Shown in pieces: positions 3,954-43,343 of a stretch of DNA of 64,000 bases (the stretch's first letter is position 1; each line of letters begins with the position of its first letter). The position numbers and the translations under genes were made by a program. Under the pieces are notes generated by a model. That model did not search any database. It was not told the origin of the DNA and saw only the letters and a list, made by a program, of their open reading frames with translations. Source of the stretch: Patescibacteria group bacterium (GTDB lineage: Bacteria; Patescibacteriota; Gracilibacteria; UBA1369; LOWO2-01-FULL-3). The stretch lies in NCBI GenBank assembly GCA_038065735.1, contig JBBTQK010000003.1, positions 64,704 through 128,703 on the forward strand. Reading direction: 5' to 3'.

Positions 3954-4586
3954 TTAAGTACCCATTATAGGCTCTAATTTTTCAAAAGCCAGTTTTTTTA
4001 CTTCTTCGATTGAAGATTCACCGTCAATTGTGATCATTTTGTCTTCGTAGAGTTTGATTGCTGGAATGGTTTCGTGTTCAAAAGCGTCTAGGCGGTTTTT
4101 TATTGCCTCTGGGTTATCATCTGAACGGGTAATCAAATCACCTCCACATGTACATTTTTCACCTGAGTAGTCGGCTGGGTAAATTGTCTTACACACAGCA
4201 CAGATTCGGCGAGTGGTTAGACGTTTTAGAGCTGTTTCTTTAGCAATGTTAATTAACACCGCTTTGTAATTGCGATTATGTTTTTGTAGTAGTTCGTTTA
4301 GTGAATGGGCCTGGTCTACCTTTCTTGGAATACCGTCAAAAAGGATGGAGGCACCGGCGGATAGGTGATTCATAAAGTTCTCAACTATTTCCATCACAAC
4401 TTCATTTGGTACTAAATTTCCCGCTTCGATAATTGATTTAACTTTTCTTGAAAGTTCACTGTCTTCCTGTGCTAATTTTCTTAATTCACCTCCAGTTTCA
4501 AAAATCTGAAGATTGTATTTTTCTGCTACAGCCTTACTTAGAGTTCCTTTACCTGCTCCTTGCATGCCAAAGAATATTAGATCCAT
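3954..4586 (-). CDS. adk: adenylate kinase (Cys4 zinc lid)
   Basis: P-loop GMQGAGKGT, lid CAVC...CTCGG, spc-operon position. Confidence 0.95.
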   Translation of the reverse strand: MDLIFFGMQGAGKGTLSKAVAEKYNLQIFETGGELRKLAQEDSELSRKVKSIIEAGNLVPNEVVMEIVENFMNHLSAGASILFDGIPRKVDQAHSLNELLQKHNRNYKAVLINIAKETALKRLTTRRICAVCKTIYPADYSGEKCTCGGDLITRSDDNPEAIKNRLDAFEHETIPAIKLYEDKMITIDGESSIEEVKKLAFEKLEPIMGT

Positions 4587-4601
4587 GTAGATAGGGTTTA
4601 T

Positions 4602-4663
4602 TGGGATATTGTGTTTCGGTCTTGGCCGAAACTTTTGCTATACTTAGGCAACTTCGTTGCCTG
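4602..4663 (-). repeat. REP-like composite intergenic element, copy 2
   Basis: Hairpin GTTTCGGTCTTGGCCGAAAC (4613-4632) and hairpin AGGCAACTTCGTTGCCT (4646-4662), one nt before the secY stop. Differs from copy 1 at only a handful of positions. Confidence 0.75.
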
Positions 4664-5962
4664 CTAATAGAACTTTTTGTAGTCGTGCATTACCAACTGA
4701 GTGTTGATTTGTCTGATTAATTCTAGGACTACACCAACGATGATGATAATTCCAGCGCCTGAGATAAGTAGGGGAACGTTGCCAACGCCGCTGCTGCTAA
4801 ATGCAAATTGAGTTAATATTGGTAGGATACCAATGAAGGCGATGAATAAAGCTCCGTAGAATGTTAATCTGCTGCTCACTGTTTTAAGATATTCAGAAGT
4901 TTGTGTCCCTGGTCTGATACCTGGAATGTATCCACCTCTTTTTTGAATATTTTCAGCGATTTCTTCTGGTTTAAATGTGATTGAAACGTAGAAGAAAGTG
5001 AAGGCAATGATTAATAGGAAGTAAACTATCATGTATGAAACACTGTTTGGGGTGAACAGGCTCGTCATAGTTGCGCCTAAACTCTGCAACCATTCTGACT
5101 TAGCATTTACAAAGAATTGGCCTAGGATACCAGGAAAACTAACTAACGCTACCGCAAAGATGATAGGAATCATACCTGCTTGATTTATTCTGATAGGAAA
5201 GAAAGCATCTTCGCCTTTTGCACGGACACCACGTCCAGCATAGGTGAGTGGTATTTTGCGTTGAGCTTCATTCACCAAAATTACAACTGTAATCAAGATG
5301 ATAGTTAGTAACGTAACGATAATAAAAGGAATCAATTTGCTCTCGTCGTTTTGTGCCAAAAATAGTCCCTGTCCAATCTGTTGAGGAATACTTGCAATAA
5401 TACCTGCAAAGATAAGAACTGAGATACCATTTCCAATACCTTTTTCTGTAATTTGTTCACCAATCCATACCAATAACAAGGTACCTGCAGATATAGTTAA
5501 CATTATAGGTAGAATAACTGCCGGATCAGTAATGTTTTCTACGATTGGGATTTGTGATTGAGAATTTAATAGGATAATCATTCCATATGACTGTAAGAAA
5601 GCCAAAGGAAGAGTTAACCAGCGAGTATATGAGTTTAATTTTCTTCTGCCTGCGTCGCCCTCTTTTGAAAGGTTTTCCATCTTTGGAACGATAACGGTCA
5701 ACAACTGGATAATGATAGAAGCGTTAATGTATGGAGAAATACCCATCAATACGATTGAGAATGTTTCAGTGCTGCCACCAGTTAAAAGACTGAACATTTC
5801 TAGTAGTTCATTCTGGTTTGAAAAAGCTGCTAGAGCAGCAGTATTTGCTCCAGGAACTGTAATATGGGCAATGAGCCTATAAAGGGCTAGAGCACCAAGG
5901 GTGAAAAGGATTTTTTTTCTTAAATCCGGGGAATTCCAGATCTGGCTTAAGTACTTAAACAT
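4664..5962 (-). CDS. secY: preprotein translocase subunit SecY
   Basis: 432-aa multi-pass membrane protein with a SecY-type N-terminus (LRKKILFTLGALALYRL). Lies between rplO and adk. Confidence 0.96.
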   Translation of the reverse strand: MFKYLSQIWNSPDLRKKILFTLGALALYRLIAHITVPGANTAALAAFSNQNELLEMFSLLTGGSTETFSIVLMGISPYINASIIIQLLTVIVPKMENLSKEGDAGRRKLNSYTRWLTLPLAFLQSYGMIILLNSQSQIPIVENITDPAVILPIMLTISAGTLLLVWIGEQITEKGIGNGISVLIFAGIIASIPQQIGQGLFLAQNDESKLIPFIIVTLLTIILITVVILVNEAQRKIPLTYAGRGVRAKGEDAFFPIRINQAGMIPIIFAVALVSFPGILGQFFVNAKSEWLQSLGATMTSLFTPNSVSYMIVYFLLIIAFTFFYVSITFKPEEIAENIQKRGGYIPGIRPGTQTSEYLKTVSSRLTFYGALFIAFIGILPILTQFAFSSSGVGNVPLLISGAGIIIIVGVVLELIRQINTQLVMHDYKKFY

Positions 5963-6410
5963 CTTTTGAAATTAAAACTTTTACTTTACCTTTATTGTCT
6001 TCAACAGCTTTGATTGCTTCAACTGACGCTTTGTGTACAGTTATGTTCAAAGTCTTCTCTAGCTTGCCGTTCCCAAGTAGTTTAACAGGTTTATTCTTTT
6101 TTGAAATTAATTTTTTAGCTAGAAGGCTTTCTAGATTAACTTCTGCATTATTATCAAAAACATTTAAAGCCTCTACGTTTACAATCTGATAATCAACGTG
6201 ATTAGGATTTTTGAAACCCTTTAGTTTAGGCATTCTTCTTAAAGCTGGAGTTTGTCCACCTTCGAATCCAGGTCTTCTTGTACCACCTGAACGAGCAGTT
6301 TGGCCTTTACCACCACGTGTACTAAATGTTCCACGACCAGAACCATTACCACGTCCAACTATTTTCCTACGTTTTTTGCCTGATTTGCTTTTTAATTCGA
6401 GTAGAGACAT
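5955..6410 (-). CDS. rplO: 50S ribosomal protein L15
   Basis: GRGNGSGRGTFSTRGGKGQ motif. Follows rpsE directly, with no rpmD between them. Confidence 0.96.
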   Translation of the reverse strand: MSLLELKSKSGKKRRKIVGRGNGSGRGTFSTRGGKGQTARSGGTRRPGFEGGQTPALRRMPKLKGFKNPNHVDYQIVNVEALNVFDNNAEVNLESLLAKKLISKKNKPVKLLGNGKLEKTLNITVHKASVEAIKAVEDNKGKVKVLISKDV

Positions 6411-6432
6411 TTTAATTTAATTATTTATAGAA

Positions 6433-6996
6433 TTATTCTGCTTTTGCCGCTGCCACAGGAGCTGGAGCTGGCTGAATAGGTTTAGCTGCGGCTCTTTTTG
6501 CTGCCGTTCTAATCATTTTTGGATTTGCTCTTAGAGTTTTAAGAGCTTGGATAGCTGCTTTAGTGTTATTAAGTTTATTATTAGCACCAAAACATTTACT
6601 TAGGATATCTTTTACACCTGTTAATTCTAGAACTTTACGAACCGCACTACCAGCGATAAGACCTGTACCTTGTACGGCTGGCATCATAATCATTTTAGCT
6701 GCTTTGTATTTAACGCCAATTCTATGAGGAATAGTTGTTCCATCTAAAACAATAACGTTAAGTTTCTTTTTTGCTTTGTTGATAGCTTTTTGAATAGCTC
6801 CAGTTACTTCGTTTGATTTACCAACACCAAAGCCAACTTTTCCTTTTCTATTTCCAATAACAACAGTAGCTCTAAAACGCATTTTTCTACCACCTTTAAC
6901 TACTCTGGTAACTCTATCGATTTGAATTACTTCTTCATCGAATTCCTTTTGTTCTTTCTTTACGAAACCTGCATTTTTTGATCCTGGCTTTTGCAT
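6433..6996 (-). CDS. rpsE: 30S ribosomal protein S5
   Basis: [21 protein letters not shown] and GTGLIAG motifs, with an Ala/Pro-rich C-terminal tail. Confidence 0.96.
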
Positions 6997-10881: not shown

Positions 10882-11559
10882 TTATGATTGTTTAATTTCT
10901 TCTATCTGTTCGGTAAGTTTTTTCTTAAGGTCTTTTTTAAATATATCTCCACGGTAGATCCAGGTTTTGATACCTATTTTACCGTAGCTAGTAAAGGCTG
11001 GTACGGACGCGTAGTCTATATCTGCTCTGAACGTATGTAAAGGAATTTTACCTTTGCTAAAGAATTCACCACGAGATATTTCAACTCCATTAAGTCTTCC
11101 TCCTAGATATATTTTCGCTCCAATTGCTCCACTTTCGATAACTTTTTCTAGAGCCATCTTGGCTGCTCTTCTGTATGAAACACGCTTTTCAACCTGTCTA
11201 GCAACGCTGTCAGCAAAAATCTTTGCATCTAACATTGGCTTTTTGATCTCTTTAATATTGATAGCAAAAGTCTCTTTGAATGTTTTATGTAGAATATCTT
11301 TTAATTTCTCGATACCTTCACCGCCATGACCAATGATTACACCTGGTTTTGATGAGTGAATGTTTAGGATAACTTTACCCTGGGTTCTAAGAATCTCGAT
11401 TTTTGACATACCATCATTATCCAGGTTTTTCTTGATCAAAGCATTAATTGCAATGTCCTGATGTAAAACTTTGGCATAATTTTTACCAGCATACCATTTT
11501 GAATCCCAATCCTGGGTGATGCCGATTCTTATGATTTTTGGGTTTACTTTGTGACCCAT
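10882..11559 (-). CDS. rpsC: 30S ribosomal protein S3
   Basis: MGHKVNPKIIRIGI N-terminus and a KH domain, 225 aa. Confidence 0.97.
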   Translation of the reverse strand: MGHKVNPKIIRIGITQDWDSKWYAGKNYAKVLHQDIAINALIKKNLDNDGMSKIEILRTQGKVILNIHSSKPGVIIGHGGEGIEKLKDILHKTFKETFAINIKEIKKPMLDAKIFADSVARQVEKRVSYRRAAKMALEKVIESGAIGAKIYLGGRLNGVEISRGEFFSKGKIPLHTFRADIDYASVPAFTSYGKIGIKTWIYRGDIFKKDLKKKLTEQIEEIKQS

Positions 11560-11585
11560 AGGGTTTTTATAAGTTATTTAAGTTA

Positions 11586-12020
11586 TTATTGAGCTTTTTT
11601 AGTACGAGTAGTCTTTTTTACTTTTACTTCCGGTTCAGCCTTTGGCTCAGCGCTACCTTCCGTTTCAACTGTTTTTACTTTAGTCTTAGCTTCACCTCTG
11701 CTTACCAATGATACCGTAATATGTGATGTTCTCTTTAGAATAGGGTGCATTCTGCCTCTTGAAACTGGAATTCCTCTTTTGTAAGTAGGTCCTTCTGTAA
11801 CAATAATTTCATGAATGAATAGACTTTCTTTATCCTGTTTGAAATTGTTTTCTGCGTTTGCTGCTGCTGATTCAATAACTTTCTTAATGATATCCGCTGC
11901 CTTTTTTCTTGTGAATTTAAGTGTGTCAGTTGCGTCTTTTACGCTCATACCTTTAACCAATAGGGCAATCAATGCTGCTTTTTTTGGTGTAATCCTGACT
12001 TGTCTTAGTATTGCTTTCAT
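11586..12020 (-). CDS. rplV: 50S ribosomal protein L22 with a basic C-terminal extension
   Basis: RITPKKAALIALLVKGMSVKDA pattern. The last ~35 aa are a Lys/Glu-rich tail. Confidence 0.95.
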   Translation of the reverse strand: MKAILRQVRITPKKAALIALLVKGMSVKDATDTLKFTRKKAADIIKKVIESAAANAENNFKQDKESLFIHEIIVTEGPTYKRGIPVSRGRMHPILKRTSHITVSLVSRGEAKTKVKTVETEGSAEPKAEPEVKVKKTTRTKKAQ

Positions 12021-14909: not shown

Positions 14910-15236
14910 TTAGCTATTCATTTGTAACATTTTTATCTCGATTTCTACACCCGCTGGAAGGCTAAGGTTTGAAAGAGCTTCTATTGTATGAGAAGTCGTT
15001 TCTGTGATGTCGATTAGTCGGGCATGTGTACGCATTTCAAACTGATCTCTAGCATTCTTGTGAACGAAAGTAGATTTGTTTACTGTGAATTTTTCGATCT
15101 TAGTTGGAAGTGGAATAGGGCCGGCAACGATTGCGCCTGTTCTCTCGGCTGTGTCGATGATTAACTTAGTAGTTTCGTCGATAACTTTGTGATCAAATGA
15201 TTTTACTTTGATACGAATCTTTTGTTTGTTTGCCAT
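14910..15236 (-). CDS. rpsJ: 30S ribosomal protein S10
   Basis: [17 protein letters not shown] pattern, 108 aa, first gene of the S10 cluster. Confidence 0.97.
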
Positions 15237-15265
15237 GTTGTTTATTGGTTAGGAGAAGTAAATTT

Positions 15266-15291
15266 AAAAAACCGAGTTTTACAGCTCGGTT
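15266..15291 (-). promoter_or_regulatory. intrinsic-terminator-like hairpin in the rpsJ leader (candidate attenuator)
   Basis: Minus-strand RNA reads AACCGAG-CUGUAAA-CUCGGUU followed by UUUU. It ends ~30 nt upstream of the rpsJ ATG and lies downstream of the candidate promoter at 15422-15450. Confidence 0.5.
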
Positions 15292-15421
15292 AGGGTTTGA
15301 TTAGTCGCTTTTTTAGAATTCTTTAGAATTGAAAGCGGAGATGAAACCTGAGCTGTCCCGCTATTCTTTGTAGAATCTGGCGGGTGACTTCCTAAAAACA
15401 GAAAATCAATTTTGTAGTGAA

Positions 15422-15450
15422 TTTATATAGATAGTTTTGATTGTAGTCAA
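15422..15450 (-). promoter_or_regulatory. candidate promoter for the rpsJ leader
   Basis: Minus strand: TTGACT (revcomp of 15445-15450), 17 nt, TATAAA (revcomp of 15422-15427). Confidence 0.5.
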
Positions 15451-15458
15451 GTTTTTTA

Positions 15459-15486
15459 TTGACATTCTATTGGTGCATGTATAAAT
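15459..15486 (+). promoter_or_regulatory. candidate promoter for the plus-strand orphan operon
   Basis: TTGACA (15459-15464), 16 nt, ATAAAT (15481-15486), preceded by an extended -10 TG (15478-15479). Divergent from the rpsJ promoter. Confidence 0.5.
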
Positions 15487-15516
15487 TGTGGCCTCTATAA
15501 TTTTTAATTCTATATA

Positions 15517-16134
15517 ATGAGTGCAGAAGCTGTGGGAGGGAAGAAGGATGTGGTGAATGGTGCAGGTAGATTGGACGCTGTCGAGGGAATGGGTGTTGCT
15601 GCTTGGATTCGAGCCGGAGATTCTGCTAGAGCTCAGGTTGAAGTTGCGGATGACGGTTTGAAAGCGGCTGTTGAGAGTGAGTTGCGGACTTTGTTTGGAA
15701 GTAATATTGATGAATTATTTGTTAATAGATCAAATGGTACTTTATCTGTGACTTTTAGGTTTGGCGAAGTGGATTTTCCTGAAGGGGCAAAAGTGGAAGA
15801 GGGTGTTCAAGTGGATAGTGATCATCATCATGATGGAGACGAGATTGTTAGTTTTAAGCATGTGGCTAATCTGGCATCTAATAGAGATTTTTTCGAAAAA
15901 TTATTTGCCGGGTATTCTTTATTTGGCGCAATAACTTCTGCTAAATTACTTTCTAATAAAAAGTGTGGATTTGTGTTGGATATTAATGCGATGAGGGGTG
16001 AGGCAGTGGCGGAACCTAATCTAGCGGTTGAGGCTAAAGATGGTGATGCTGGAGCCGCAATAAATGGTATTAGGAAAGGCGTTGGCTTTGGTTTGTCGGA
16101 TAGCGTCATTGATCTAAAGGATATTGTTTGGTGA
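15517..16134 (+). CDS. hypothetical acidic protein, orphan operon gene 1 (205 aa)
   Basis: Long ORF in an AT-rich genome with a promoter directly upstream. Gly/Asp/Glu/Val/Ala-rich, with no recognisable motif. Confidence 0.7.
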   Translation: MSAEAVGGKKDVVNGAGRLDAVEGMGVAAWIRAGDSARAQVEVADDGLKAAVESELRTLFGSNIDELFVNRSNGTLSVTFRFGEVDFPEGAKVEEGVQVDSDHHHDGDEIVSFKHVANLASNRDFFEKLFAGYSLFGAITSAKLLSNKKCGFVLDINAMRGEAVAEPNLAVEAKDGDAGAAINGIRKGVGFGLSDSVIDLKDIVW

Positions 16135-16167
16135 TATCGTGGTGTCTTAACTTTAATTTAAGAATTT

Positions 16168-16743
16168 ATGGCGGACAGATTTGATAGAGATAGGGATATT
16201 GATACTACTGAAATTCCATCTAGAGGAACTGGGGATTTGGCAAAATTGATTTTTGAATTAAAGTTTATAGAGAGAGCGGCTCGTGACGAAATTTTTAGTA
16301 GGATTAGTTATTTTCTTGAGCGTAAATTAGGAGGAGGTGGTTCTGAATGTGTATTTAAAATTTTGGCATTGCTTACGGATCCTGAAATTGATTTTGTTGT
16401 TCAGGGTGGCATTGTTAGTGTGTATGTGGATAAAATTAGACCACGGAATTATCAATTTGGAGCCAGGGATGATCACTCTCAAGCCATTATCGATTTGGTT
16501 AGTCAGTTGAGCGGTGATGGAGTTGAGGTTATTAATAGAGAAGAGGATGAATTTGGTACTGAAGTTATAGGATTTAAAATGCCTTTGGCAGAATTGGATA
16601 GAGGTTTCCCTATTGGTGGAGTACCTCGTGGAGGCGTTGAAGTTGTGGATGATTTTGTTGGGCAGGGAGAGGTTGGTGATATTAGGCAACGGGTTGGGGG
16701 AGCGGTTGCGCTCGGTGGTTCAGTTGGAAAAGATGTTGATTAG
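16168..16743 (+). CDS. hypothetical acidic protein, orphan operon gene 2 (191 aa)
   Basis: Starts 33 nt after gene 1 and is preceded by CTTAACTTTAATTTAAG. Gly-rich C-terminus, no recognisable motif. Confidence 0.7.
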   Translation: MADRFDRDRDIDTTEIPSRGTGDLAKLIFELKFIERAARDEIFSRISYFLERKLGGGGSECVFKILALLTDPEIDFVVQGGIVSVYVDKIRPRNYQFGARDDHSQAIIDLVSQLSGDGVEVINREEDEFGTEVIGFKMPLAELDRGFPIGGVPRGGVEVVDDFVGQGEVGDIRQRVGGAVALGGSVGKDVD

Positions 16744-16839
16744 TTCTCCCTAGGGAGGATTTGTGATCTGCAAATGGATTTAAATTTGACGATTGCTGAT
16801 TTGGTGATATTATTCTATCTTAATTTTAATTTAAACTTT

Positions 16840-17076
16840 ATGAGTGAAGTAAATCTGATTGATGACGTCCGTCCAGATTTTATTCAGCAAGCTGCCGCGA
16901 GACTTGAAGGCAAAGGTGCTGGTTATGATGATATGGACGATCCTTTAAAGCATCATCTTGTCGATACATCTGGCATTTCCAGAAGTGAAGTTACTGCAGA
17001 AAGCTATGCTGCAGAATGCGAAGATTTGAGAAGAAGGTATGCTGCATCTGCCGCAAATGGTTCTCATGTAGATTAA
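16840..17076 (+). CDS. hypothetical acidic protein, orphan operon gene 3 (78 aa)
   Basis: The ORF track opens at 16774. I prefer ATG 16840 (MSEVNLIDD) because it is preceded by CTTAATTTTAATTTAAACTTT, the box seen before the neighbouring starts. Confidence 0.55.
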   Translation: MSEVNLIDDVRPDFIQQAAARLEGKGAGYDDMDDPLKHHLVDTSGISRSEVTAESYAAECEDLRRRYAASAANGSHVD

Positions 17077-17098
17077 ATAATTATCTTAATTAAACTTT

Positions 17099-17572
17099 AT
17101 GGTAGAAATTGATGAGGGAAGTGGTTCTTGGTTGGAATACAGCACTTTGAATAGCAATGTAAAATCCAGGATCAGTGCTACTGTGCAGATGAAAGCTAGT
17201 GCTGCTGCGGCTATGGATATGTGGGCAATTCTTAATAAAGCTGGGACTGAATCTACCGATACGATTAGAGGCTCTTTAGATATTTCTTTGGATAGTAAAG
17301 CTCTTAATGATTCAGATATAGCCCTTCTGAGAAAGTTAAATGAATGTGGTGTAATTCAACTTGTTAATAATGATAGTAGTATATCTGGATTTGAGATAGA
17401 TTTGGATGCGAATAGGAGTAGTCGCGATGTTGTTGCCGATGCCTCTCCCCATGCCACTGGCGCCCTTGAAAGTAATGAAAATGTTGATTTGATGGTTGCT
17501 GATATGAGGGTGGCTGTAGCTGACAATGCAAGAAATAATGCTAAACTCCTCAGGATGTTTGGAGAAGAGTGA
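17099..17572 (+). CDS. hypothetical acidic protein, orphan operon gene 4 (157 aa)
   Basis: Starts 22 nt after gene 3, preceded by CTTAATTAAACTTT, and followed by the terminator at 17605-17643. Confidence 0.7.
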   Translation: MVEIDEGSGSWLEYSTLNSNVKSRISATVQMKASAAAAMDMWAILNKAGTESTDTIRGSLDISLDSKALNDSDIALLRKLNECGVIQLVNNDSSISGFEIDLDANRSSRDVVADASPHATGALESNENVDLMVADMRVAVADNARNNAKLLRMFGEE

Positions 17573-17604
17573 GAGCTCTAGTAGATAGTAAATTTATTCA
17601 GCAC

Positions 17605-17643
17605 AAAAAAAATCGCATCAACCTTTCGGGAGATGCGATTTTT
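17605..17643. terminator. bidirectional rho-independent terminator (orphan operon and tuf)
   Basis: AAAAAAAATCGCATC-loop-GATGCGATTTTT. A 9-bp stem plus an inner CC/GG pair, with an A-run on one side and a T-run on the other. Confidence 0.8.
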
Positions 17644-17648
17644 GAACA

Positions 17649-17662
17649 GAGCGCAAGCGCTC
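17649..17662 (-). repeat. stop-abutting palindromic hairpin (GAGCGC-AA-GCGCTC)
   Basis: Perfect palindrome 2 nt from the tuf stop, with the same core as 8478-8493. Confidence 0.6.
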
Positions 17663-17664
17663 GG

Positions 17665-18858
17665 CTATTTCAAAATCTTTGCTACTACTCCGGCACCTAC
17701 TGTACGACCACCTTCACGGATGGCGAAACGAGTACCTTCTTCAAGAGCGATAGGAGCTCCAAGAGTAATTGTCATTTTAACGTTATCACCTGGCATAACC
17801 ATTTCTACGTCAGCTGGTAATTCTACAGAACCAGTTGCGTCAGTTGTACGGATGTAGAACTGAGGTTTGTAACCTTTGAAAAATGGAGTATGACGACCAC
17901 CTTCATCTTTTGTCAAAACGTAAATTTCAGATTCGAATGTAGTGTGTGGAGTGATTGAACCTGGTTTAGCAATAACCTGACCTCTTTCGATATCATCTCT
18001 TTCAACACCACGGATAAGTAGACCAACGTTGTCTCCAGCCTGACCTCTATCAAGGCTCTTTCTGAACATTTCAACACCAGTTACTACTACTTTTCTTGTT
18101 GGACGAATACCAACGATTTCAACTTCATCATTCACATTAACCACACCCTGATCAACTCTACCAGTTGCTACTGTACCTCTACCTTTGATAGAGAATACAT
18201 CTTCAACTGACATCAAGAATGGTTTGTCTAGGATACGAACTGGATCTGGAATATATGTATCAAGTACTTCAAGAAGATCAAGAATTGGTTTGTTAGCTAC
18301 TGGATCAGCTGGGTTTTCCATAGCTTTAAGAGCTGAACCACGGATGATTGGAGTAGTGTCTCCAGGGAATCCGTATTTATTTAGAAGTTCACGAACTTCA
18401 ATTTCTGAAAGATCAGCAATATCTGGATCAGCCATGTCGATCTTATTCAAGAAAACAACAATGTAAGGAACGTTAACCTGTTTAGCAAGAAGGATATGTT
18501 CACGAGTTTGTGGCATAGGACCATCTGCAGCAGATACTACTAGAATAGCGCCATCCATTTGAGCGGCACCAGTAATCATGTTCTTAACGTAATCGGCATG
18601 ACCTGGACAATCCACGTGAGCGTAATGTCTTTTAGCTGTAACGTATTCCTGATGAGAAGTTGAGATAGTAATACCTCTAGCTTTTTCTTCTGGGGCGTTA
18701 TCAATTTGGTCGTAAGCAACACCTTTGTTGCCACCACCGAATACTGTTGCTGCTACCATCGTGATTGCAGCTGTAAGGGTAGTTTTACCATGATCTACGT
18801 GGCCAATTGTACCTACGTTCACATGGACTTTACTGCGGTCAAAAACTCCTTCTGCCAT
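17665..18858 (-). CDS. tuf: elongation factor Tu
   Basis: [18 protein letters not shown] and NKID motifs, 397 aa. Confidence 0.99.
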
Positions 18859-21055: not shown

Positions 21056-21149
21056 GGTATTGGGAAATTAAAATTTAAATAAAATGTTGTGCGTCAATTT
21101 GGATTTCGACGCAGGGAGATTATATGTTTTGAATGGCTTAAGTCAAGGC

Positions 21150-21548
21150 TTAACTCTTTTTTGAGAAATCTCTTCTGCCAGCGATTAATAGGCCTAGAGT
21201 TGTCAGGGTTAGAATAAGGCTAATTAGAAATTCTTGGCTGAGGATTTGTTTGCCGTAGTTAGCCAAAAGCATAGCGAACAACACAAGTGGAATAATGGTA
21301 AAGATTAGCCCTGTAATGAATGACCAACGTTTTAGTTTTATGAGATAGTACCCGATTATTGTGCTGAGTACACCCTCGATTATGCTAATGGTGTAAAGCG
21401 TCTCCTCAATTCCAGAAAGCAATTCTTCCGGATTAACAGGTTTGCCCATTTCGACAACTAAATTTATGGTTCCGCTAATTAGCATAAGCAAACCACTAAC
21501 TAAAAGAATGAGTGCGGCGATTTTGATGGCAGCGGATGGAGTTTTCAT
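21150..21548 (-). CDS. hypothetical small membrane protein (about 4 TM segments)
   Basis: Hydrophobic ORF. I prefer the start at the ATG giving MKTPSAAIKIAALILL (21548), which avoids overlap with the divergent msrB start. The ORF track extends to 21593. Confidence 0.55.
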   Translation of the reverse strand: MKTPSAAIKIAALILLVSGLLMLISGTINLVVEMGKPVNPEELLSGIEETLYTISIIEGVLSTIIGYYLIKLKRWSFITGLIFTIIPLVLFAMLLANYGKQILSQEFLISLILTLTTLGLLIAGRRDFSKKS

Positions 21549-21587
21549 AAATTTTGTTAAATTTGAGAATAAAGTTATACTGATTTT

Positions 21588-21950
21588 ATGCAATTAAATG
21601 ATTTAACACCAGAGGAAGAGCGGGTAATTGTTGGGAAGGGGACTGAAGGGGCTTTTACTGGTGAATATACAGATACTTTTAGAGATGGTGTGTATGTTTG
21701 TCGACGTTGTGATGCGCCGCTTTATACTTCGGATAGTAAATTTCATTCGGGATGTGGCTGGCCGAGTTTTGATCAGGAAATTCCTGGGGCAGTTAAGAAT
21801 ACTACGGATGCGGATGGCAGGCGTACAGAGATTACTTGTATGAATTGTGGCGGGCATCTCGGGCATGTTTTTACGGGAGAATCTTTTACGGAAAAAAATG
21901 TGCGACACTGCGTGAATTCAATTTCTTTAAAATTTATTCCTAAAAAATAA
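21588..21950 (+). CDS. msrB: peptide-methionine (R)-S-oxide reductase
   Basis: [16 protein letters not shown] and CGGHLGHVF motifs. Confidence 0.93.
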
Positions 21951-21951
21951 T

Positions 21952-22479
21952 ATGGAAACTGTAGTTTTAGGTGGAGGCTGTTTTTGGTGTACGGAAGCGA
22001 TTTTTCAGCAGTTGAGGGGAGTTGTGAAGGTGACTTCAGGATATGCCGGTGGAGAATTTAAAAATCCCGGATATTATGATTTGGCAATGGGTAGAGCTGA
22101 TCAGGCAGAAGTGATTAAAGTAGAATTTGATCCTGCTGTGATTACGTTGCGAGATTTGTTGGATGTATTTTTTCACACACATAATCCGACTACGGTTAAT
22201 CAACAGGGTGCGGATAAGGGACCGGCTTATCGCTCGGTAATTCTTTATACTAGTCCTGAGCAAAAGGGGATTGCGGAGAATTTGATTGCAGAATTGGGGC
22301 GGTCAGGAGAATTTGGAAATCCGATTGTGACTGATGTGGAGCCTTTGGGAGAATTTTATGAAGCGGAAGAGGAACACCAAAGTTATTATGAACGGAATTC
22401 GTACCTGCCTTATTGCGAAGTCGTGATTTCACCGAAGCTGGCTAAGTTGCGGGAGAAATATAGGGAGAAGTTGAAGTAG
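21952..22479 (+). CDS. msrA: peptide-methionine (S)-S-oxide reductase
   Basis: GGGCFWCTEA active-site motif. Starts 1 nt after msrB. Confidence 0.93.
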   Translation: METVVLGGGCFWCTEAIFQQLRGVVKVTSGYAGGEFKNPGYYDLAMGRADQAEVIKVEFDPAVITLRDLLDVFFHTHNPTTVNQQGADKGPAYRSVILYTSPEQKGIAENLIAELGRSGEFGNPIVTDVEPLGEFYEAEEEHQSYYERNSYLPYCEVVISPKLAKLREKYREKLK

Positions 22480-22487
22480 GGATTGGG

Positions 22488-22805
22488 TTAAACCGAGATT
22501 CCTAGTGCACGATTTTGCCTTTGTTCGAGTGAGTGAAGGATCTCATCTATCTGCTCATCTGTTAGTGAGCCTTCTTGAAGTCGTAAATGGATTTCTTGTC
22601 GGCATAAACCAGCTTTAGAAAGACCGCCATGGGGTAATTCTTGAAGAGTTGTTAGGTGGAGTGTTTCTCCGCTGTAGCCACTTACAAAAAGATGTCTTCC
22701 CATTCCTTGACTCAATCTGATCAATTCTTGATCCGTCAGTCTTTGTGGATTAAATCCTGCTGAAACGCTGCCTTTTAGTGCTTGGTAATCTATTCTGTTT
22801 TCCAT
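22488..22805 (-). CDS. hypothetical protein (105 aa)
   Basis: ORF only, no motif recognised. Gln/Leu/Gly-rich composition, atypical for this genome. Confidence 0.45.
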   Translation of the reverse strand: MENRIDYQALKGSVSAGFNPQRLTDQELIRLSQGMGRHLFVSGYSGETLHLTTLQELPHGGLSKAGLCRQEIHLRLQEGSLTDEQIDEILHSLEQRQNRALGISV

Positions 22806-22896
22806 ATTACGGACTTATTTAGAAGTTTTGATTCTAGCCTTAGGGCAGTAAGTAAGTCAATGATTTGCTTTGGTATATTCTTTGTTGTACTTTGTG

Positions 22897-22916
22897 TTTT
22901 CGGACCGGTCCGAAAA
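22897..22916. repeat. 20-nt perfect palindrome TTTTCGGACCGGTCCGAAAA, copy 1
   Basis: Read directly from the sequence. A second copy lies at 23745-23763. It shares the TTTCGG/CCGAAA arms with the REP-like element hairpins. Confidence 0.85.
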
Positions 22917-23044
22917 CAGCGTTTTACTTCCCTAAGAAGGTGGTCCAATTTAGTTTTGGTCTATTTGTAGCCGTTAATGGCGTTTTCGGTGTTGTTTTTG
23001 GGGAAGTCATTAAGAATACTAAATTGTGCGTTTGGCAAATTTTA

Positions 23045-23428
23045 TTAGTAGCTAAATACTACTTCCTGCAATTTTTCTTTGAAGGTGATTTCAAAGTTGT
23101 CAAAAATACCTTTTCTGCCTAAGAGGCATTCTACTTCTTCTTTACAGATGAGAACTGGGATTTTGAGTCTGATTTTATCAATAGTCAGGTATAGATCTGT
23201 TTGTTTTGCTTCTATTGATTCCAGATTTGCGGTTTCTATTTTTGTCTTATGATCTGGTAAAGATTTGTAAGTTAAACCTAAAATTGTTCCTGCTGATTGA
23301 GGAATCATGGTGTAATCGGCTCCACTATCAATTAGAAATTCAAAATAACGGCTGGAGTTTTGATCTTTGCCGAGTTTGGCCATTAACATTGGCCTATTTC
23401 TGATGTACGTAAAGGTAAGGTGCGACAT
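23045..23428 (-). CDS. retropepsin-like (clan AA) aspartic protease
   Basis: FLIDSGADYTMIP contains the D-S/T-G-A catalytic signature in a ~115-127-aa protein. An alternative start at MLMAKLG (23389) would remove the overlap with the upstream ORF. Confidence 0.7.
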   Translation of the reverse strand: MSHLTFTYIRNRPMLMAKLGKDQNSSRYFEFLIDSGADYTMIPQSAGTILGLTYKSLPDHKTKIETANLESIEAKQTDLYLTIDKIRLKIPVLICKEEVECLLGRKGIFDNFEITFKEKLQEVVFSY

Positions 23429-23612
23429 ATTTTGGGTGAATGCGGGATACTAGAAATTCTTTTTTTTCTATGTCCGGCATTACTTTTTTGGCTTCATGAA
23501 GTGCTATTACGCAATCCGTGCCAATTCCCAAAACTTTTCCGTTGAAAGAAATGATGGTTTTACCAACATGCTTTTCTTCCATTCTGGCTGATATGTTTGG
23601 AGCTTTTATCAT
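23394..23612 (-). CDS. small partner protein of the aspartic protease (resembles the DUF5678 family)
   Basis: 72-aa ORF translationally coupled to the protease gene. The GKTIISFNGKVLGIGTD...EAKK pattern resembles small proteins I recall being paired with clan AA proteases. Family assignment is from memory only. Confidence 0.45.
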   Translation of the reverse strand: MIKAPNISARMEEKHVGKTIISFNGKVLGIGTDCVIALHEAKKVMPDIEKKEFLVSRIHPKYVAPYLYVHQK

Positions 23613-23744
23613 ATGCTTACATGCTAGCTTAAAATGTGGATGCCGACAACTTTAGTTATATCAAATAGACATTAAATAATTATTAAATTTTCTTAAAATC
23701 TTTTCAGGTTGGTTTGCGAATTCCTATATTTATTGCAGTTTAAG

Positions 23745-23763
23745 TTTTCGGACCGGTCCGAAA
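23745..23763. repeat. palindrome TTTTCGGACCGGTCCGAAA, copy 2
   Basis: 19 of 20 nt identical to 22897-22916. The two copies bracket the protease cassette. Confidence 0.85.
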
Positions 23764-23782
23764 GTCTTGTAATTGGATAGGC

Positions 23783-23817
23783 AAAAAAAGAGCCTCGATT
23801 TTGGTCGAAGCTCTTTT
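23783..23817 (-). terminator. rho-independent terminator after rpsG
   Basis: Minus-strand RNA reads AAAGAGCUUCGA-CCAAAA-UCGAGGCUCUUU followed by a U-run. 11 bp with one mismatch. Confidence 0.7.
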
Positions 23818-23854
23818 AGAATTATTGTTTCAGTCCGATTTGCTTGGGGGAACG

Positions 23855-23868
23855 GGCGACAAGTCGCC
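23855..23868 (-). repeat. stop-abutting palindromic hairpin (GGCGAC-AA-GTCGCC)
   Basis: Directly adjacent to the rpsG stop codon (23869-23871) and identical to 7997-8010. Confidence 0.65.
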
Positions 23869-24823: not shown

Positions 24824-27800
24824 TTAAATAACAGGCAATGTCTTTACCTTTTCTACGCTGTCGTCGTCTCCTCTATCAAATTCAGGTTCTGCAAGGTGCT
24901 GCATTTTTCTGAAAGTTTCGCCGGCTGGGATCAATTTACCGATGATAACATTCTCTTTTAGACCCTGTAGATTATCTATACGGTTTGTTGTAGAAGCTTC
25001 TACCAATACTCTAATTGTTTCCTGGAAAGAAGCCGCAGATAACCAGCTATCAGTGTAAAGAGCGATACGAGTCAAACCAAGAAGCAATCTCTCGCCTTTA
25101 GTTTTACGTTTGCCCTTTTTAGCTAAAGCTTCGTTTGTGCGGTTGTATCTAATAATATCCACAATTTCACCAGGTAAGAAGTCACTGTCGCCGGATTCCA
25201 TAATTCTAACTTTTGATAGCATTTGTTTAGCGATGATTTCGATATGTTTGTCATTGATTGTCTGACCCTGAGAAGCGTAAATGCTTTGTACCTCAGTAAC
25301 AATGTACTTTTGAACAGTGTATTCATCTGTTAAATGCATCAATTGTTTAAGATCCAAATGACCAGTCGTAATTGCCTGACCTTTTGAAACCATCATGTTG
25401 TCCTTGATCTTCAAACTTCTTGAGAATGGAACCTGATATACCTTTCGGATTTTGTCGTCTGTACGGATCACGATGGAATTATCTTCGATACGAACAACTT
25501 TACCATCCTGATCAGCCTTTAGAGTGCCTTTTTGATTTGCATCTTTAGCAATACTCATTTTAGCTTTAACTTTATCTCCAGGTTTTACCATTGATTCCAT
25601 TTCTCCAGTCATAAGGTAGCTGATTTCAACCGGTTCAAGTGAAGTAACACTGATTTCAGTTTGTTTACCTTTTTGATGAATGTGAGCTTTACCTTCGATT
25701 TCAGAAATGATACCTGGATTTTTTGGGCTTCTTGCTTCAAATAATTCTTCTACACGAGTTAGACCTTGAGTGATATCTCCACCTTCGGCCACACCACCCA
25801 TGTGGAAGGTTCTCATGGTAAGCTGCGTACCCGGTTCACCGATACTCTGAGCGGCTATAATACCTACCGCAGTACCGATGGCGATGTTTTTACTTGTACC
25901 AAGGTCTTTACCATAACATTGGATACAAATACCGTTCAAAGTCTGACATGTGATAACTGAACGTACGTGTACAATATTGATCTCGTTAGCTTTGATAGCT
26001 TTTAGAGTTTCTTTTTCGATAGTGTTACCTTTTTTAGCGATGGTAGCACCTTTTTTGTCTTTAAGATCTTCTGCCAAAGTACGACCATAAATACGTACCT
26101 CGAATTTTTCACCAATTACTTCTGATTCTTCACGAGTGATAATGTGAACTTGCTTAGAACCACAATCGTCTTCGCGGATAACTACGTCCTGGTTTGAGTC
26201 AACTAGACGTCTAGTCAAATAACCGGCTTCCGCAGTCTTTAGGGCTGTATCGGATTTACCTTTACGTCCTCCGTGTGTCGCAATGAAGTATTCCAAGATC
26301 TTAAAACCTTCTTTAAGATTTGATTTAATCGGCAACTCAATTGTTTTACCGGCTGGATTAGCTACCAACCCTTTCATTCCGCAAAGCTGAGTAATTTGTC
26401 CCCAGTTACCGCGGGCTCCAGAGTCGATCATGTAGAATACGTTGTTGCTTGGATCGATACTCTTGATCATGCAGGTAGTAATTTCTGCCTTGGTTTTTGA
26501 CCAAACTTTAATTGTGTGTAAATAACGTTCGTTGTCTGTGATAAGACCTTTCCAGTATTGATTGCTGATTTGTTTAACAACTTCAGAAGAAGCTTCTACG
26601 ATGGCGTTTTTTTCTTTAGGCACAATCATATCGGCCTGGCTGAAAGAGATACCTGACTTAGTCGCAAATTTGAAACCAAGATCCTTTAAATCATCAGTTA
26701 ATTTTGAAGTTTTTTCGATGCCAAACATTTCAAAACAATCGCTGACAAGTTCGCTTAATTTTTTCTTGCCCATGTTTTCATTCTGGTAGCCAAGACCGTC
26801 TGGTACATAGCTGTTAAAAATCAAACGACCAATTGTTGTCTCAAGAATTTCTCCTTTGAAACGACATTTGATTGGGGCCTGGAGAGAGGCGTGACCACCC
26901 TGGTAAGCGAGAACGGCTTCTTTAATATCTGAGAAAGCCATACCTTCACCTTTTAATCCAGAGTTAAGTTTTGTTAGATAGTAGCAACCAAGCACCATGT
27001 CCTGAGTAGGTGTGATGATAGGTTCTCCAGAAGAAGGCTTAAGAATGTTGTGCTTTGAAAGCATCAAAGTCTTAGCCTCGTGTTGAGCGGCTGTTGATAA
27101 TGGTACGTGAATAGCCATCTGATCACCATCGAAATCGGCGTTGAATGCGGCACAAACTAGTGGATGTACCTGAATAGCTTTACCTTCGATTAGGATAGGT
27201 TGGAAAGCTTGGATACCCAAACGGTGAAGGGTAGGCGCACGATTTAATAGTACGTAGTGATTTTTTGTAACTCTTTCAAGAATGTCCCAAACTTCTCTTT
27301 TACCGCTTTGAATAAGTCTTTCAGCGTTTTTGATGTTGTGGGCAAGACCATCTCTGATCAAGTGACCAATAATAAATGGTTTGAATAATTCCAAGGCCAT
27401 GATTTTTGGTAGACCACACTGATGAATTTTTAATTTTGGACCGATGATAATTACTGAACGACCAGAATAATCCACACGTTTTCCGAGCAAGTTCTGACGG
27501 AAGCGCCCTTGTTTACCCTTTAACATATCAGATAAAGAACGTAATTTACGTTTGTCTCCTGAGCTGAATACTGTTTTACCCTGACGGGCGCTGTTGTTTA
27601 ACAAAGTATCTACGGCTTCCTGTAACATACGTTTTTCATTTCTGCAGATTACCTCTGGAGCACCAATAGATAAAAGTCTTTTTAGACGGTTGTTTCTATT
27701 GATAACTCTTCTATAAAGATCGTTAAGATCTGAAGCGGCAAAACGACCTCCATCCAACTGTACCATCGGACGTAAATCCGGTGGAATGATTGGTAGGGTA

Positions 27801-28744
27801 GTCATGATAAACCATTCAGGTTTGATGTTGGCTTTGTCCAAACTACCAGCTAATTTAATTCTCTTGATGATCTTTTTTTGCTTTTGACCGGTTGCGTTTC
27901 TTGATTCTTTTTTCAATTTCTCAATAAGTTCTTTTAGGTTTATAGCACCCAAAATATTTCTGATTGTTTCAGCGCCACTACCAGCTTTGAAGACATGTCC
28001 AAATTTCATAGACATGTTTCTGTAATCAACTTCAGAATAAACTTTGCTTACAGCCAATTTTTCGAGAGCGTCTTTAGTGTCGTTATGCTGATAATCTAGA
28101 TCTTCGATTCGGTTTGCGTATTCTTTTTCTACATCTGTCAGAGTTTTTTTAGCTACAGAGGCATTTTCGATTTTTTCTACATCTAGAGATTTTTCTTTAA
28201 ATTCATCCTGAATTCTTTTTTTCTGTTCCTTATATTCCTGTAGAAGGTTTTTGATAGCTTCTTCTCTAGCAGCATCGTCAACTTCGTGAACTACGTAAGC
28301 TGCAAAATAAACAACCTGTTCGAGAGTTTTGATTGGAAGGTCTAATAGAAGGCCGATTCTACTTGGAGTAGAGCGTAAAAACCAGATATGAGTAACCGGA
28401 ACTGCCAATTTGATATGGCCAAGTCTTTCACGTCTTACAGAAGAACGTGTAACTTCAACTCCACATTTTTCACAAATCACGCCTTTATATCTAATTCTTT
28501 TGTACTTACCGCAATAACATTCCCAGTTTTTAGTTGGGCCAAATATTTTTTCGCAAAACAAACCATCGCGTTCTGGTTTTTGAGTACGGTAGTTGATGGT
28601 TTCAGGTTTTTTTACTTCACCGTGAGACCAACCTAAGATTTCCTCAGGAGAGGCAACTGATACTGTAATTGCATCAAACTGATCCTTGAAATTTCTTGAA
28701 TCATCTAGTTTTTGAGGCATAGATTTAGTATTGTTAGAAGTCAA
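24824..28744 (-). CDS. rpoC: DNA-directed RNA polymerase subunit beta-prime
   Basis: NADFDGDQM catalytic motif and an N-terminal zinc-binding Cys cluster. The ORF track starts at TTG 28744, but ATG 28720 ([11 protein letters not shown]) is an equally plausible start. Confidence 0.98.
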
Positions 28745-28787: not shown

Positions 28788-29261
28788 TTATAACCCAAGG
28801 TCTTTATCGATTGGGCTTTCCTCGTCAGTGTGTTCAGGATGATCTACCGGTGGTTCCTCCTGAGGAATGTATTCGTCTTCGCTGGATTCGCCGCCTTCGC
28901 TACCTTCAAATCCTTCGCCTTCGGCTTTTGGTCTTTTTTCAAGTCTGATCATATCTTTCACAACGATTTCAGTCTTGAATTTTTTAGTCCCATCCGGACC
29001 GTCCCAGCTGCGAGTTTTGAGATAACCCTCGATGTAGATGAGGTCACCCTTTTTAAGGTATTTCCCGCAGATTTCTGCAAGGTGAGCCCAAGCTACACAT
29101 TCATGGAATTCCGCAGAGGTGTTTTTTTGACCACCCTTTGTCATCCATTCTCTGTTTGTAGCTACACCAAAGGTAGTTACGCTTTGTCCGTTTGGAGTCT
29201 GTCTTAGTTCAGGCGTTCTGGTTAAGTTACCGATAATGATTACTTTGTTAATGCTACGCAT
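28788..29261 (-). CDS. ssb: single-stranded DNA-binding protein
   Basis: OB-fold sequence INKVIIIGNLTRTPELRQTPNG...FHECVAWAHLAE...YIEGYLKTRSW, with an acidic tail ending IDKDLGL. Sits between rpoB and rpoC. Confidence 0.9.
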   Translation of the reverse strand: MRSINKVIIIGNLTRTPELRQTPNGQSVTTFGVATNREWMTKGGQKNTSAEFHECVAWAHLAEICGKYLKKGDLIYIEGYLKTRSWDGPDGTKKFKTEIVVKDMIRLEKRPKAEGEGFEGSEGGESSEDEYIPQEEPPVDHPEHTDEESPIDKDLGL

Positions 29262-35073: not shown

Positions 35074-35293
35074 AATATTGGTGAGTACGCACTCACTCGG
35101 CGATCTTTGAAGTTAATAATATTTTTTTGCTTGAGCTAAGCCTTTGTAAGATTTAACTTGCTTGTTGCGCTTTGTCTTTTGGCTGGAGATTTGCATTGTT
35201 GACAATTCGGAATATTACACTGGTTTTTGGACCTGATTCTGTTTTTGCCTTCTGGCAGCCACGTGAGTGCCGCTTGCGCCGATCGCCGTATTA

Positions 35294-35302
35294 TGTTATA
35301 AT
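35294..35302 (+). promoter_or_regulatory. extended -10 promoter (TGtTATAAT) for 35334 gene
   Basis: Part of the 24-nt module CGTATTATGTTATAATAAATGTGT (35287-35310), which is repeated at 38873-38896. Confidence 0.55.
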
Positions 35303-35333
35303 AAATGTGTTTAAAAAAATAACAAAAATAAAA

Positions 35334-38888: not shown

Positions 38889-38914
38889 TTATGTGTATAT
38901 TTAACACAAATTTT

Positions 38915-42909: not shown

Positions 42910-43338
42910 TTAGCTGGTAATCATTTGTAGATATTCTCCTGGTAACAGAATTTTTGTTGGTAAATTTGCCTTTTCAAGCTTTGTGGTTTTAAAGTCTTTT
43001 TTATCTAAAGTAATCAAAAAATCGGCTTTCTGATTGATGCTGCTAATGAGTATTGGGAGGTCTTTTTCAATGATTAGATCCTGATATTTTATTTTTAAAT
43101 CTGTTGAGTGAGCTTCTTTATCAATCTGATTAAGCAAGCTGACTAGTTTGTAGAATTCCGGTAGAAATTCTACTCCAACTTTTCTCTCAATATTTAATTT
43201 TGCTTCTTTAATGGCATATAGACTTGATACTAATATATGTTTTTTATTTTTAGCTAGTTCAAAAATGGCTCTGGAACCTCCAGTTTTTGAATAAGTAGCA
43301 GCAAAAAAGATGTTGGCGTCTAAAAATAGTTTGTACAT
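42910..43338 (-). CDS. PIN-domain toxin (VapC-like)
   Basis: The N-terminal FLDANIFF and C-terminal ITLDKKDF acidic residues are typical of PIN nucleases. Lies 5 nt downstream of the antitoxin gene. Confidence 0.75.
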   Translation of the reverse strand: MYKLFLDANIFFAATYSKTGGSRAIFELAKNKKHILVSSLYAIKEAKLNIERKVGVEFLPEFYKLVSLLNQIDKEAHSTDLKIKYQDLIIEKDLPILISSINQKADFLITLDKKDFKTTKLEKANLPTKILLPGEYLQMITS

Positions 43339-43343
43339 CTGAG

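Follow-up and report, generated by a model that had tools for sequence, protein, structure and literature searches.

Variable hotspots flanked by core genes are known from bacterial pangenomes as integration and defence-island hotspots. Together with the orphan gene (ORFan) clusters of the Candidate Phyla Radiation (CPR)/Patescibacteria and with divergent promoter pairs and bidirectional terminators, they are the systems with which the present locus is compared. It lies in a stretch of 64,000 nucleotides (nt; referred to as the window) from a Patescibacteria group bacterium (GTDB lineage Bacteria; Patescibacteriota; Gracilibacteria; UBA1369; LOWO2-01-FULL-3; GenBank assembly GCA_038065735.1, contig JBBTQK010000003.1, positions 64,704–128,703 of the forward strand) and consists of four plus-strand open reading frames (ORF1–ORF4) in the gap between the minus-strand genes tuf and rpsJ. 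This four-gene module is best explained as a genuine, long-resident, lineage-restricted, and fast-evolving accessory operon in a hotspot of its clade; its products would be non-enzymatic binding proteins. The probability assigned to this reading as a whole is roughly 0.55. Its first part, namely that the genes are real, resident, orphan, and situated in a hotspot, is held with much higher confidence, and the part concerning function with low confidence.

Architecture and coding signal of the module

The gap between rpsJ and tuf comprises positions 15237–17664 (2,428 nt). The initial annotation had described it as a 2.4-kb interval with four serial plus-strand ORFs, and their sizes, spacers, and coordinates are all confirmed. 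The module and its flanking genes contain the following features:

14910–15236, minus strand: rpsJ
15459–15487, plus strand: candidate promoter of the module, sigma-70-like (TTGACA, spacer of 15–17 nt, TG-TATAAAT; a consensus match only)
15517–16134, plus strand: ORF1, 205 amino acids, isoelectric point (pI) 4.7, soluble, orphan
16127–16161, plus strand: junction box of 35 nt with the ORF1 stop and the ORF2 start context, TTTGGTGATAT...TCTTAAYTTTAATTTAA
16168–16743, plus strand: ORF2, 191 amino acids, pI 4.6, orphan
16800–16834, plus strand: second copy of the junction box upstream of ORF3, 83% identity
16840–17076, plus strand: ORF3, 78 amino acids, pI about 4.6, orphan; a longer reading of 100 amino acids starts at 16774
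17082–17099, plus strand: third, shorter copy of the junction box before ORF4
17099–17572, plus strand: ORF4, 157 amino acids, pI 4.4, orphan
17608–17643, both strands: hairpin common to the convergent ORF4 and tuf, an inverted repeat with 12-nt arms that are 100% complementary
17665–18858, minus strand: tuf

All four ORFs are co-directional on the plus strand and separated by spacers of 33, 96, and 22 nt. They form a compact, apparently autonomous four-gene unit opposite to tuf and rpsJ, as had been proposed. The start of the 78-amino acid form of ORF3 has a TCTTAAYTTTAATTTAA box just upstream and is also the one picked in public gene calls. ORF1, ORF2, and ORF3 share one reading frame (their starts at 15517, 16168, and 16840 all fall into frame 1), and ORF2 is parted from the 100-amino acid form of ORF3 by a single TAG.

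The candidate promoter comprises TTGACA at 15459–15464 and TG-TATAAAT at 15478–15486, and a promoter scan reports it as TTGACA-17-TAAATT with 10 of 12 matches. It stands back to back with the rpsJ promoter, the −35 boxes of the two being 8 bp apart. This pairing and the extended −10 TG had been noted initially, and the sequence is present as described, as a match that alone is not above chance. At the other end, the hairpin shared with tuf has a significant fold on both strands (−20.0 kcal/mol, z −3.8, on the plus strand; −27.1 kcal/mol, z −4.3, on the minus strand), in agreement with the bidirectional structure initially described. With an A-run and a T-run on its flanks, it can, judging from the sequence, serve as an intrinsic terminator both ways. 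The U-tract has eight U for tuf versus four to five for the module, making the hairpin stronger on the tuf side. A terminator scan left it uncalled, presumably because of its 12-nt loop. Transcription of the module would hence start from its own sigma-70-type promoter, divergent from that of rpsJ, and would halt at the hairpin that terminates tuf too, so that the operon would neither run into tuf nor break the S10 operon.

The CTTAA...TTAA boxes that had been seen upstream of ORF2, ORF3, and ORF4 are confirmed. The two long copies of the junction box give a local alignment score of 40, compared with 24.4 ± 2.8 (maximum 37) for codon-shuffled controls, and an exact 17-mer of the box occurs at just these two sites in the window. 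In addition, the 96-nt spacer between ORF2 and ORF3 resembles the 3′ terminus of ORF1 together with the junction that follows. The box may have been left by a duplication within the module, or it may be an element that the genes share for translation initiation or regulation. One could also regard the ORFs as fragments of one larger, decayed gene, and the frame shared by ORF1, ORF2, and ORF3, the single TAG before the long form of ORF3, and the resemblance of the ORF2–ORF3 spacer to the end of ORF1 would fit this. However, three ORFs share a frame by chance in about one of nine cases, each ORF is equipped with a separate A/T-rich start box, coding scores are uniformly high in all of them, and no Pfam domain is found in any frame of either strand. 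Decay of a single gene is therefore very improbable.

The coding signal was scored in bits per codon with a codon model trained on the other plus-strand genes of the window. In frame, all four ORFs score +0.30 to +0.34 (ORF1 +0.305), compared with 0.00–0.33 for bona fide plus-strand genes under the same model, and the other two frames as well as all antisense frames of the module are negative. In each ORF, the GC content falls from the first to the second and to the third codon position (GC1 > GC2 > GC3). When the module was shuffled 2,000 times, the longest run without a stop codon had a mean of 71 and a maximum of 162 codons, compared with the observed 205, 191, and 157. Gene starts throughout the window lack a Shine–Dalgarno-like GGAGG and are instead preceded by A/T-rich TTAA or TAAAT boxes, which suggests Shine–Dalgarno-independent initiation in this organism; the start context of ORF2–ORF4 is the same. 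The module thus looks adapted to its host, as initially stated, with codon scores, silent-site skew, and start context as in the resident plus-strand genes. A three-frame Pfam scan of the antisense strand gave no match; hence, the ORFs do not merely mirror the remains of a known gene on the opposite strand. As far as can be told from the sequence, ORF1–ORF4 look like real, long-resident genes. The standard genetic code suits all conserved genes of the window.

The tuf–rpsJ junction as a hotspot in related lineages

The junction was compared in 167 loci fetched via EF-Tu and S10, as the initial annotation had proposed. The clade was defined by an EF-Tu identity of at least 79% to the window (24 lineages) and the outgroup by less than 79% (about 70 loci). 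In the outgroup, the gap between tuf and rpsJ measures 14–470 nt in all but two loci, which exceed 500 nt. In the clade, it ranges from 15 to 3,988 nt, exceeding 500 nt in 13 of the 24 lineages and 800 nt in seven. The initial view of this junction as one of the most conserved in bacteria therefore stands for bacteria generally and does not apply within the clade, where it is variable. A paper on Saccharibacteria genetics that names tuf and rpsJ was followed up and set aside; it uses the promoters only and does not treat the junction as an insertion site.

The larger gaps of the clade mostly hold an ORF of 167–347 amino acids opposite to tuf and rpsJ. The following genes were found at or near the junction of relatives (coordinates within the fetched loci):

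L008 gap: opposite-strand ORF of 226 amino acids (L008_226; 11271–11951, minus strand)
L099 gap: opposite-strand ORFs of 227 amino acids (L099_227; 4551–5234, minus strand) and 167 amino acids
L097 gap: opposite-strand ORF of 231 amino acids
L091 gap: opposite-strand ORF of about 150–210 amino acids
L090 gap: opposite-strand ORF of 251 amino acids, plus an IS200-like Y1 transposase (5450–5878, plus strand)
L100 gap: opposite-strand ORF of 310 amino acids, plus an SLH-domain protein (4975–6828, plus strand)
L117 gap: opposite-strand ORF of 347 amino acids, plus two further genes
L006, 6884–7918, plus strand: rve integrase adjoining rpsJ
L170, 408–1802, plus strand: SLH-domain protein
L174, 6373–7347, plus strand: Na/Ca exchanger at the tuf/rpsJ/rplC boundaries
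L088, 325–1746, plus strand: amidinotransferase-like gene upstream of rpsJ

None of the tabulated gap ORFs has a Pfam domain, and seven of eight are acidic (pI 4.4–6.1). In the window, L008, L099, and L090 alike, about 270–300 nt separate the rpsJ start from the start of the opposite-strand gene upstream of it. In some relatives, rpsJ and rplC are also separated by insertions. Judging by eye from the alignment, the L008 gap gene is apparently preceded by a perfect extended −10 (TGGTATAAT).

How fast such genes diverge can be gauged from L008_226 and L099_227, which are homologous (31% identity over 105 amino acids, E 6e-8, hhalign 93%; overall range 31–34%) in two loci whose EF-Tu proteins are 94% identical. 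The nonsynonymous divergence (dN) is 0.78 for the gap gene versus 0.038 for tuf and exceeds even the synonymous divergence (dS) of tuf; dN/dS of the gap gene is about 0.7, with dS being saturated. This pair is the only relationship detected when the window ORFs and the gap ORFs of the relatives were compared by BLASTP, phmmer, a two-sequence hidden Markov model, and hhalign. The EF-Tu of the window is 83–87% identical to that of every relative, and at this distance a homologous gap gene would be unrecognizable. The orphan status of ORF1–ORF4 is hence compatible with a common origin of these ORFs and the gap genes of the relatives, without proving it. It is most simply explained by very rapid divergence together with the lack of a sequenced close relative: the EF-Tu of the window is a singleton at 90% identity, the nearest EF-Tu among the fetched loci is 87% identical, and a close relative of the organism is yet to be sequenced. 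Its S10 clusters at 90% identity with proteins that, where named, are from Candidatus Peregrinibacteria, Gracilibacteria, or Patescibacteria, and the contig is present in the Hainich groundwater assemblies ERZ1292635 and ERR3858133. In this Peregrinibacteria-like clade, the junction is a recurrent hotspot for opposite-strand, extremely fast-evolving orphan genes.

The borders of the insert can be drawn from relatives without one. Positions 15237–15450, which hold the rpsJ promoter and leader, align with the insert-free relatives and are hence ancestral and not part of the module; the promoter and leader are conserved in relatives irrespective of whether these have an insertion. The −35 box of rpsJ in L005 and L007 follows the T-run of the tuf terminator within a few nucleotides. 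Since the insert-free relatives have virtually no DNA at this point, the module, including its promoter, is an insertion or expansion, and it sits precisely at the border between the terminator of tuf and the −35 box of rpsJ. Lying between a terminator and a promoter, the site disrupts neither neighbor and is permissive for this reason.

A junction of this kind behaves like an integration hotspot, and the module might accordingly be recent cargo of a mobile element, for example, a defence or anti-defence islet that horizontal transfer has brought to an intergenic site tolerant of insertions. An IS200-like Y1 transposase occupies the gap of one relative (L090), an rve integrase adjoins rpsJ in another (L006), and unrelated cargo such as SLH-domain proteins is found in L100 and L170. 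Moreover, small and strongly acidic proteins are typical of DNA-mimic anti-restriction and immunity proteins. However, the module itself contains no integrase, transposase, or recombinase (no Pfam or NCBIfam match in the four proteins and none by Pfam in the antisense frames), and no direct or terminal inverted repeats bracket positions 15451–17604. Foreign composition or codon usage was not seen in the module; by codon usage, silent-site skew, and start context, it cannot be told from the resident plus-strand genes. Likewise, there is no match in PADLOC, PHROG, IMG/VR, or the phage and plasmid collections. A recent mobile origin is therefore rather unlikely.

A different possibility is that the ORFs are proto-genes or non-functional, arising on a G+T-rich, A-poor strand that eases long ORFs, exposed to leaky divergent transcription from the rpsJ region, and evolving nearly neutrally. 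The stop-free runs that shuffles of the module already provide, the near-neutral divergence of the L008/L099 gap genes, the absence of homologues, and the low structure confidence are in line with it. On the other hand, there are four serial ORFs of 78–205 amino acids, all above or near the shuffle maximum; their codon-position periodicity and gene-like codon scores are unexpected for random ORFs, and conserved start boxes precede ORF2–ORF4. Birth in place is also contradicted by the relatives: the insert-free ones have no orthologous non-coding sequence at the site, so the ORFs did not arise in a pre-existing spacer. This explanation is thus considered unlikely.

The position of the module could, in turn, reflect a function tied to its neighbors, with the acidic products partnering, chaperoning, or regulating EF-Tu or the basic proteins of the S10 operon and being co-regulated via the divergent promoters. 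The back-to-back promoters with their closely spaced −35 boxes and the common layout of the window, L008, L099, and L090 would agree with this, and acidic products would presumably complement basic ribosomal proteins. Yet acidity is strand-wide in the window (see below), the gap occupants are not detectably homologous except for the L008/L099 pair, and near-neutral divergence is unlike that of ribosome-contacting proteins. In many members of the clade, the gap measures 15–300 nt and is devoid of genes, which argues against an essential role. Such a function is quite improbable. Similarly low odds are given to a more far-reaching proposal, in which the tuf–rpsJ spacer has been a persistent "gene nursery" since the ancestor of the clade, harboring, next to the rpsJ promoter, a divergently transcribed gene on the opposite strand that evolves at a near-neutral or diversifying rate, that was expanded to four by tandem duplication in the window, and whose acidic products act on the translation genes or the rpsJ attenuator. 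If true, the genes would represent a new class of hyper-variable ribosome-associated factors and not random accessory cargo, and the junction box would be a duplication scar.

Strand-wide composition and the orphan proteins

The initial annotation had emphasized an extreme G-over-C skew of the coding strand. Upon recount, the first 60 nt from position 15517 indeed contain 27 G and 4 C, but the skew is not specific to the module: 14 of the 15 plus-strand genes of the window have a positive GC skew at third codon positions (+0.14 to +0.74, the exception being ORF3), among them the conserved genes msrB (0.66) and msrA (0.74), and nearly all minus-strand genes, annotated or not, have a skew of zero or below. 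The silent-site skew of the module hence follows the strand and not a foreign source. The same holds for the protein composition. The products are acidic (pI 4.4–4.7), rich in Gly, Asp, Glu, and Val, and poor in Lys, as described; they are not peculiar in this, since 9 of the 11 other plus-strand genes encode acidic proteins too (pI 4.2–6.4). A G+T-rich coding strand promotes GNN codons, that is, those for Gly, Asp, Glu, Val, and Ala. Because skew and acidity are common to the plus-strand genes, they are strand-wide properties and no sign of a foreign or unusual module.

The window shows a strand dichotomy in which conserved housekeeping genes are almost all on the minus strand and the plus-strand genes are mostly acidic orphans. 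Pfam domains are missing from, or limited to a repeat motif in, at least eight further plus-strand genes, which are all wedged among conserved minus-strand housekeeping genes:

35172–36005, 38891–39427, 39742–41520, and 43721–44101, plus strand: no Pfam domain or repeat motif only
45815–46555, 48726–49703, 55841–58033, and 58785–62351, plus strand: no Pfam domain or repeat motif only

Several minus-strand genes of the window are likewise without a Pfam domain or with a repeat motif only. Silent sites are G+T-rich on the plus strand irrespective of gene orientation. By the usual convention, this would place the ribosomal/rpoBC cluster on the lagging strand, or else the polarity of the skew would be unusual. 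Unusual strand disparity has been reported in other CPR genomes (PMC7143001).

In agreement with the initial annotation, no recognizable family can be assigned to the four proteins. Pfam, NCBIfam, PHROG, and PADLOC returned no significant family for any of them, and sequence searches of the Protein Data Bank (PDB) gave no match. All four are singleton clusters at 90% identity. The remote protein searches cover ORF1, ORF2, and ORF4; for ORF3, the self match was missing and the search was hence invalid. Against 5.8 billion proteins, ORF1 returned only itself, as did ORF2 (in a query in which GGGGS was masked and which was joined to ORF3), and an exhaustive phmmer search of ORF4 against 1.84 billion representatives gave only itself and one marginal match. 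No relatives were found in the JGI metagenomes (ORF2) or in IMG/VR (all four ORFs), and DNA similarity to the module is absent from phage (INPHARED) and plasmid collections. In the 167 related loci, tblastn with the module proteins gave nothing. Neither are the ORFs paralogous to each other or to any ORF of the window by phmmer, BLASTP, and Smith–Waterman alignment with shuffles. Clear homology to a characterized family was thus not found in these searches. A transmembrane segment is absent as well, the maximum 19-residue Kyte–Doolittle mean being below 1.5 in the module proteins. Enzyme motifs are likewise lacking in the products.

Several weak matches were rejected. The sole non-self match of ORF4, P0021 (E 3e-4), results from three near-identical repeat units matching one Ser/Asp/Asn-rich stretch and is a spurious inflation by composition and repeats. 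Residues 101–148 of ORF4 match SseB_C (PF14581) with E 0.0038 and 17.8 bits, below the cut-off of 22.5 bits; this match spans half of the domain and is unsupported by the exhaustive search or the structure model. Weak matches to DUF5980, TraI, and GspN were all under the cut-off.

Structure prediction with a subsequent Foldseek search, as suggested initially, was carried out by modelling ORF2 and ORF4 from single sequences with AlphaFold2, and no usable model was obtained. The ORF2 model shows, with low confidence, an α-α-β-β-α-β-β core (approximately residues 35–145) that is preceded by a disordered N terminus and followed by a Gly-rich C-terminal tail. A Foldseek search of this model against the PDB gave only noise, with nothing below E 0.05 and TM-scores of at most 0.25. 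The products are accordingly pictured as probable soluble, non-enzymatic binding proteins of the accessory (flexible) genome, with a small α/β core and disordered Gly-rich or acidic tails. By analogy, a role in conflict or interaction (immunity, anti-defence, or partner binding) appears more likely than one in translation.

A number of results weigh against reading the module as a functional accessory operon. Promoter-like sites are not above chance by number alone, with 7 found versus 8.3 ± 3.2 expected from shuffles. The module sequence is identical between the independent ENA and Logan assemblies, which match at every base, so that with no polymorphism and no homologue purifying selection is unmeasurable. 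ORF3 is short, has an atypical silent-site skew (−0.16), and lacked its self match in the remote search. The AlphaFold2 models of ORF2 (mean predicted local distance difference test (pLDDT) score of 46, predicted template modelling score of 0.41) and ORF4 (mean pLDDT of 37) offer no positive evidence of a fold, although poor models are expected from sequences without an alignment. As for the functional class, PADLOC-DB 2.0 contains no family at E ≤ 1 for any of ORF1–ORF4, and the assignment draws only on composition, absent motifs, and the analogy to hotspots.

The rpsJ leader, other interrupted junctions, and comparison with known systems

Apart from the module, the gap contains the promoter and leader of rpsJ:

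15450–15445 (TTGACT) and about 15427–15422 (TATAAA), minus strand: rpsJ promoter, conserved in relatives
15237–15425, minus strand: rpsJ leader, roughly 190 nt
15407–15386, minus strand: P0 hairpin of the leader with a GYUUUU loop
15384–15355, minus strand: P1 hairpin of the leader
15359–15347, minus strand: antiterminator strand, a conserved GGGACA followed by 7–9 nt pairing with the 5′ arm and loop of the terminator
15291–15266, minus strand: terminator hairpin CCGAG...CUCGG with a U-run, about 30 nt ahead of the rpsJ start codon

The antiterminator pairing covaries in 20 loci (for example, ACAGCTC/GAGCTGT, ACACCCG/CGGGTGT, CACCTCG/CGAGGTG, and ACATCCT/AGGATGT). Besides the window, the leader loci are L003, L007, L008/L095, L088, L090–L094, L098–L100, L102, L104, L109, L112, L113, L117, and L118. 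Cognate antiterminator duplexes have a mean of −12.8 kcal/mol versus −8.9 kcal/mol for non-cognate ones, and none of 10,000 permutations was as good (20 loci). P0, P1, and the antiterminator are all present in the minimum free energy fold of the window's leader. A search of Rfam 15 gave no match to the leader at the gathering threshold or at E ≤ 10. The leader is hence a candidate for a new ribosomal-protein leader or S10-operon attenuator. In Escherichia coli, the S10 leader is subject to L4-mediated attenuation. The two have in common that a structured 5′ leader of the S10 operon contains a terminator hairpin that can be broken by an alternative pairing; compared with both the E. coli leader and the rpsJ motif of Peptostreptococcaceae, the leader of the window differs in sequence, structure, and phylum. 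The Peptostreptococcaceae motif (PMC11109978) is a separate RNA. As a by-product, the leader may serve RNA specialists more than the operon does.

Other conserved junctions of the window are interrupted as well. The rpsG–fusA junction is opened by 2.8 kb (21056–23868), although the two genes are adjacent in the relatives L005–L008 and L174. Its insert contains the following:

21150–21593, minus strand: orphan
21588–22479, plus strand: msrB and msrA
22488–22805, minus strand: second orphan
23045–23428, minus strand: retropepsin-like aspartyl protease

Between rpoB (29288–33148) and rpoC (24824–28744), normally a tight junction, sits ssb (SSB, E 6e-36; 28788–29261, minus strand). Additionally, a MazE-like antitoxin and PIN-domain toxin pair with weak Pfam matches adjoins serS (42910–43601, minus strand). 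Given the interrupted rpsG–fusA and rpoB–rpoC junctions, the plus-strand orphans, and the gaps of the clade, the module is not singular in either window or clade. It is one instance of a genome-wide and clade-wide pattern and not an isolated anomaly.

For comparative genomics, in which the str/S10 boundary serves as a synteny anchor, this means that even this boundary can vary as a hotspot across a whole Patescibacteria clade. The calibrated divergence of the hotspot genes (approximately 31% identity at 94% EF-Tu identity) explains why they look like ORFans. Furthermore, the case cautions that strong G-over-C skew and acidic composition can stem from a strand-wide mutational asymmetry, without any foreign or special origin being involved. 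In practice, the gain is modest, as the four proteins stay hypothetical.

The module shows none of the tested hallmarks of a mobile element, a known defence system, a viral family, SseB_C, or de novo birth in place. With the ORFan clusters of CPR/Patescibacteria, it shares short, unannotatable, and lineage-specific genes of host-like composition. It differs from them by being a tight, operon-like unit of four genes with a repeated junction box at the tuf–rpsJ boundary. Compared with divergent promoter pairs and bidirectional terminators, it likewise exhibits back-to-back −35 boxes and an A-tract, hairpin, and T-tract common to ORF4 and tuf; herein, the function is read from the sequence, and the U-tract on the module side is short (four to five U). 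As in hotspots flanked by core genes, a fixed site between core genes has contents that vary with the lineage, from orphans, an IS200-like transposase, and SLH-domain proteins to nothing at all. Unlike in those hotspots, the module has no recognizable defence, integrase, or mobility gene, its composition is fully host-like, and at least one occupant family, that of L008 and L099, was inherited vertically and diverged instead of being swapped. The module is hence a fresh instance of a familiar kind, that of CPR ORFan clusters and core-flanked variable hotspots.

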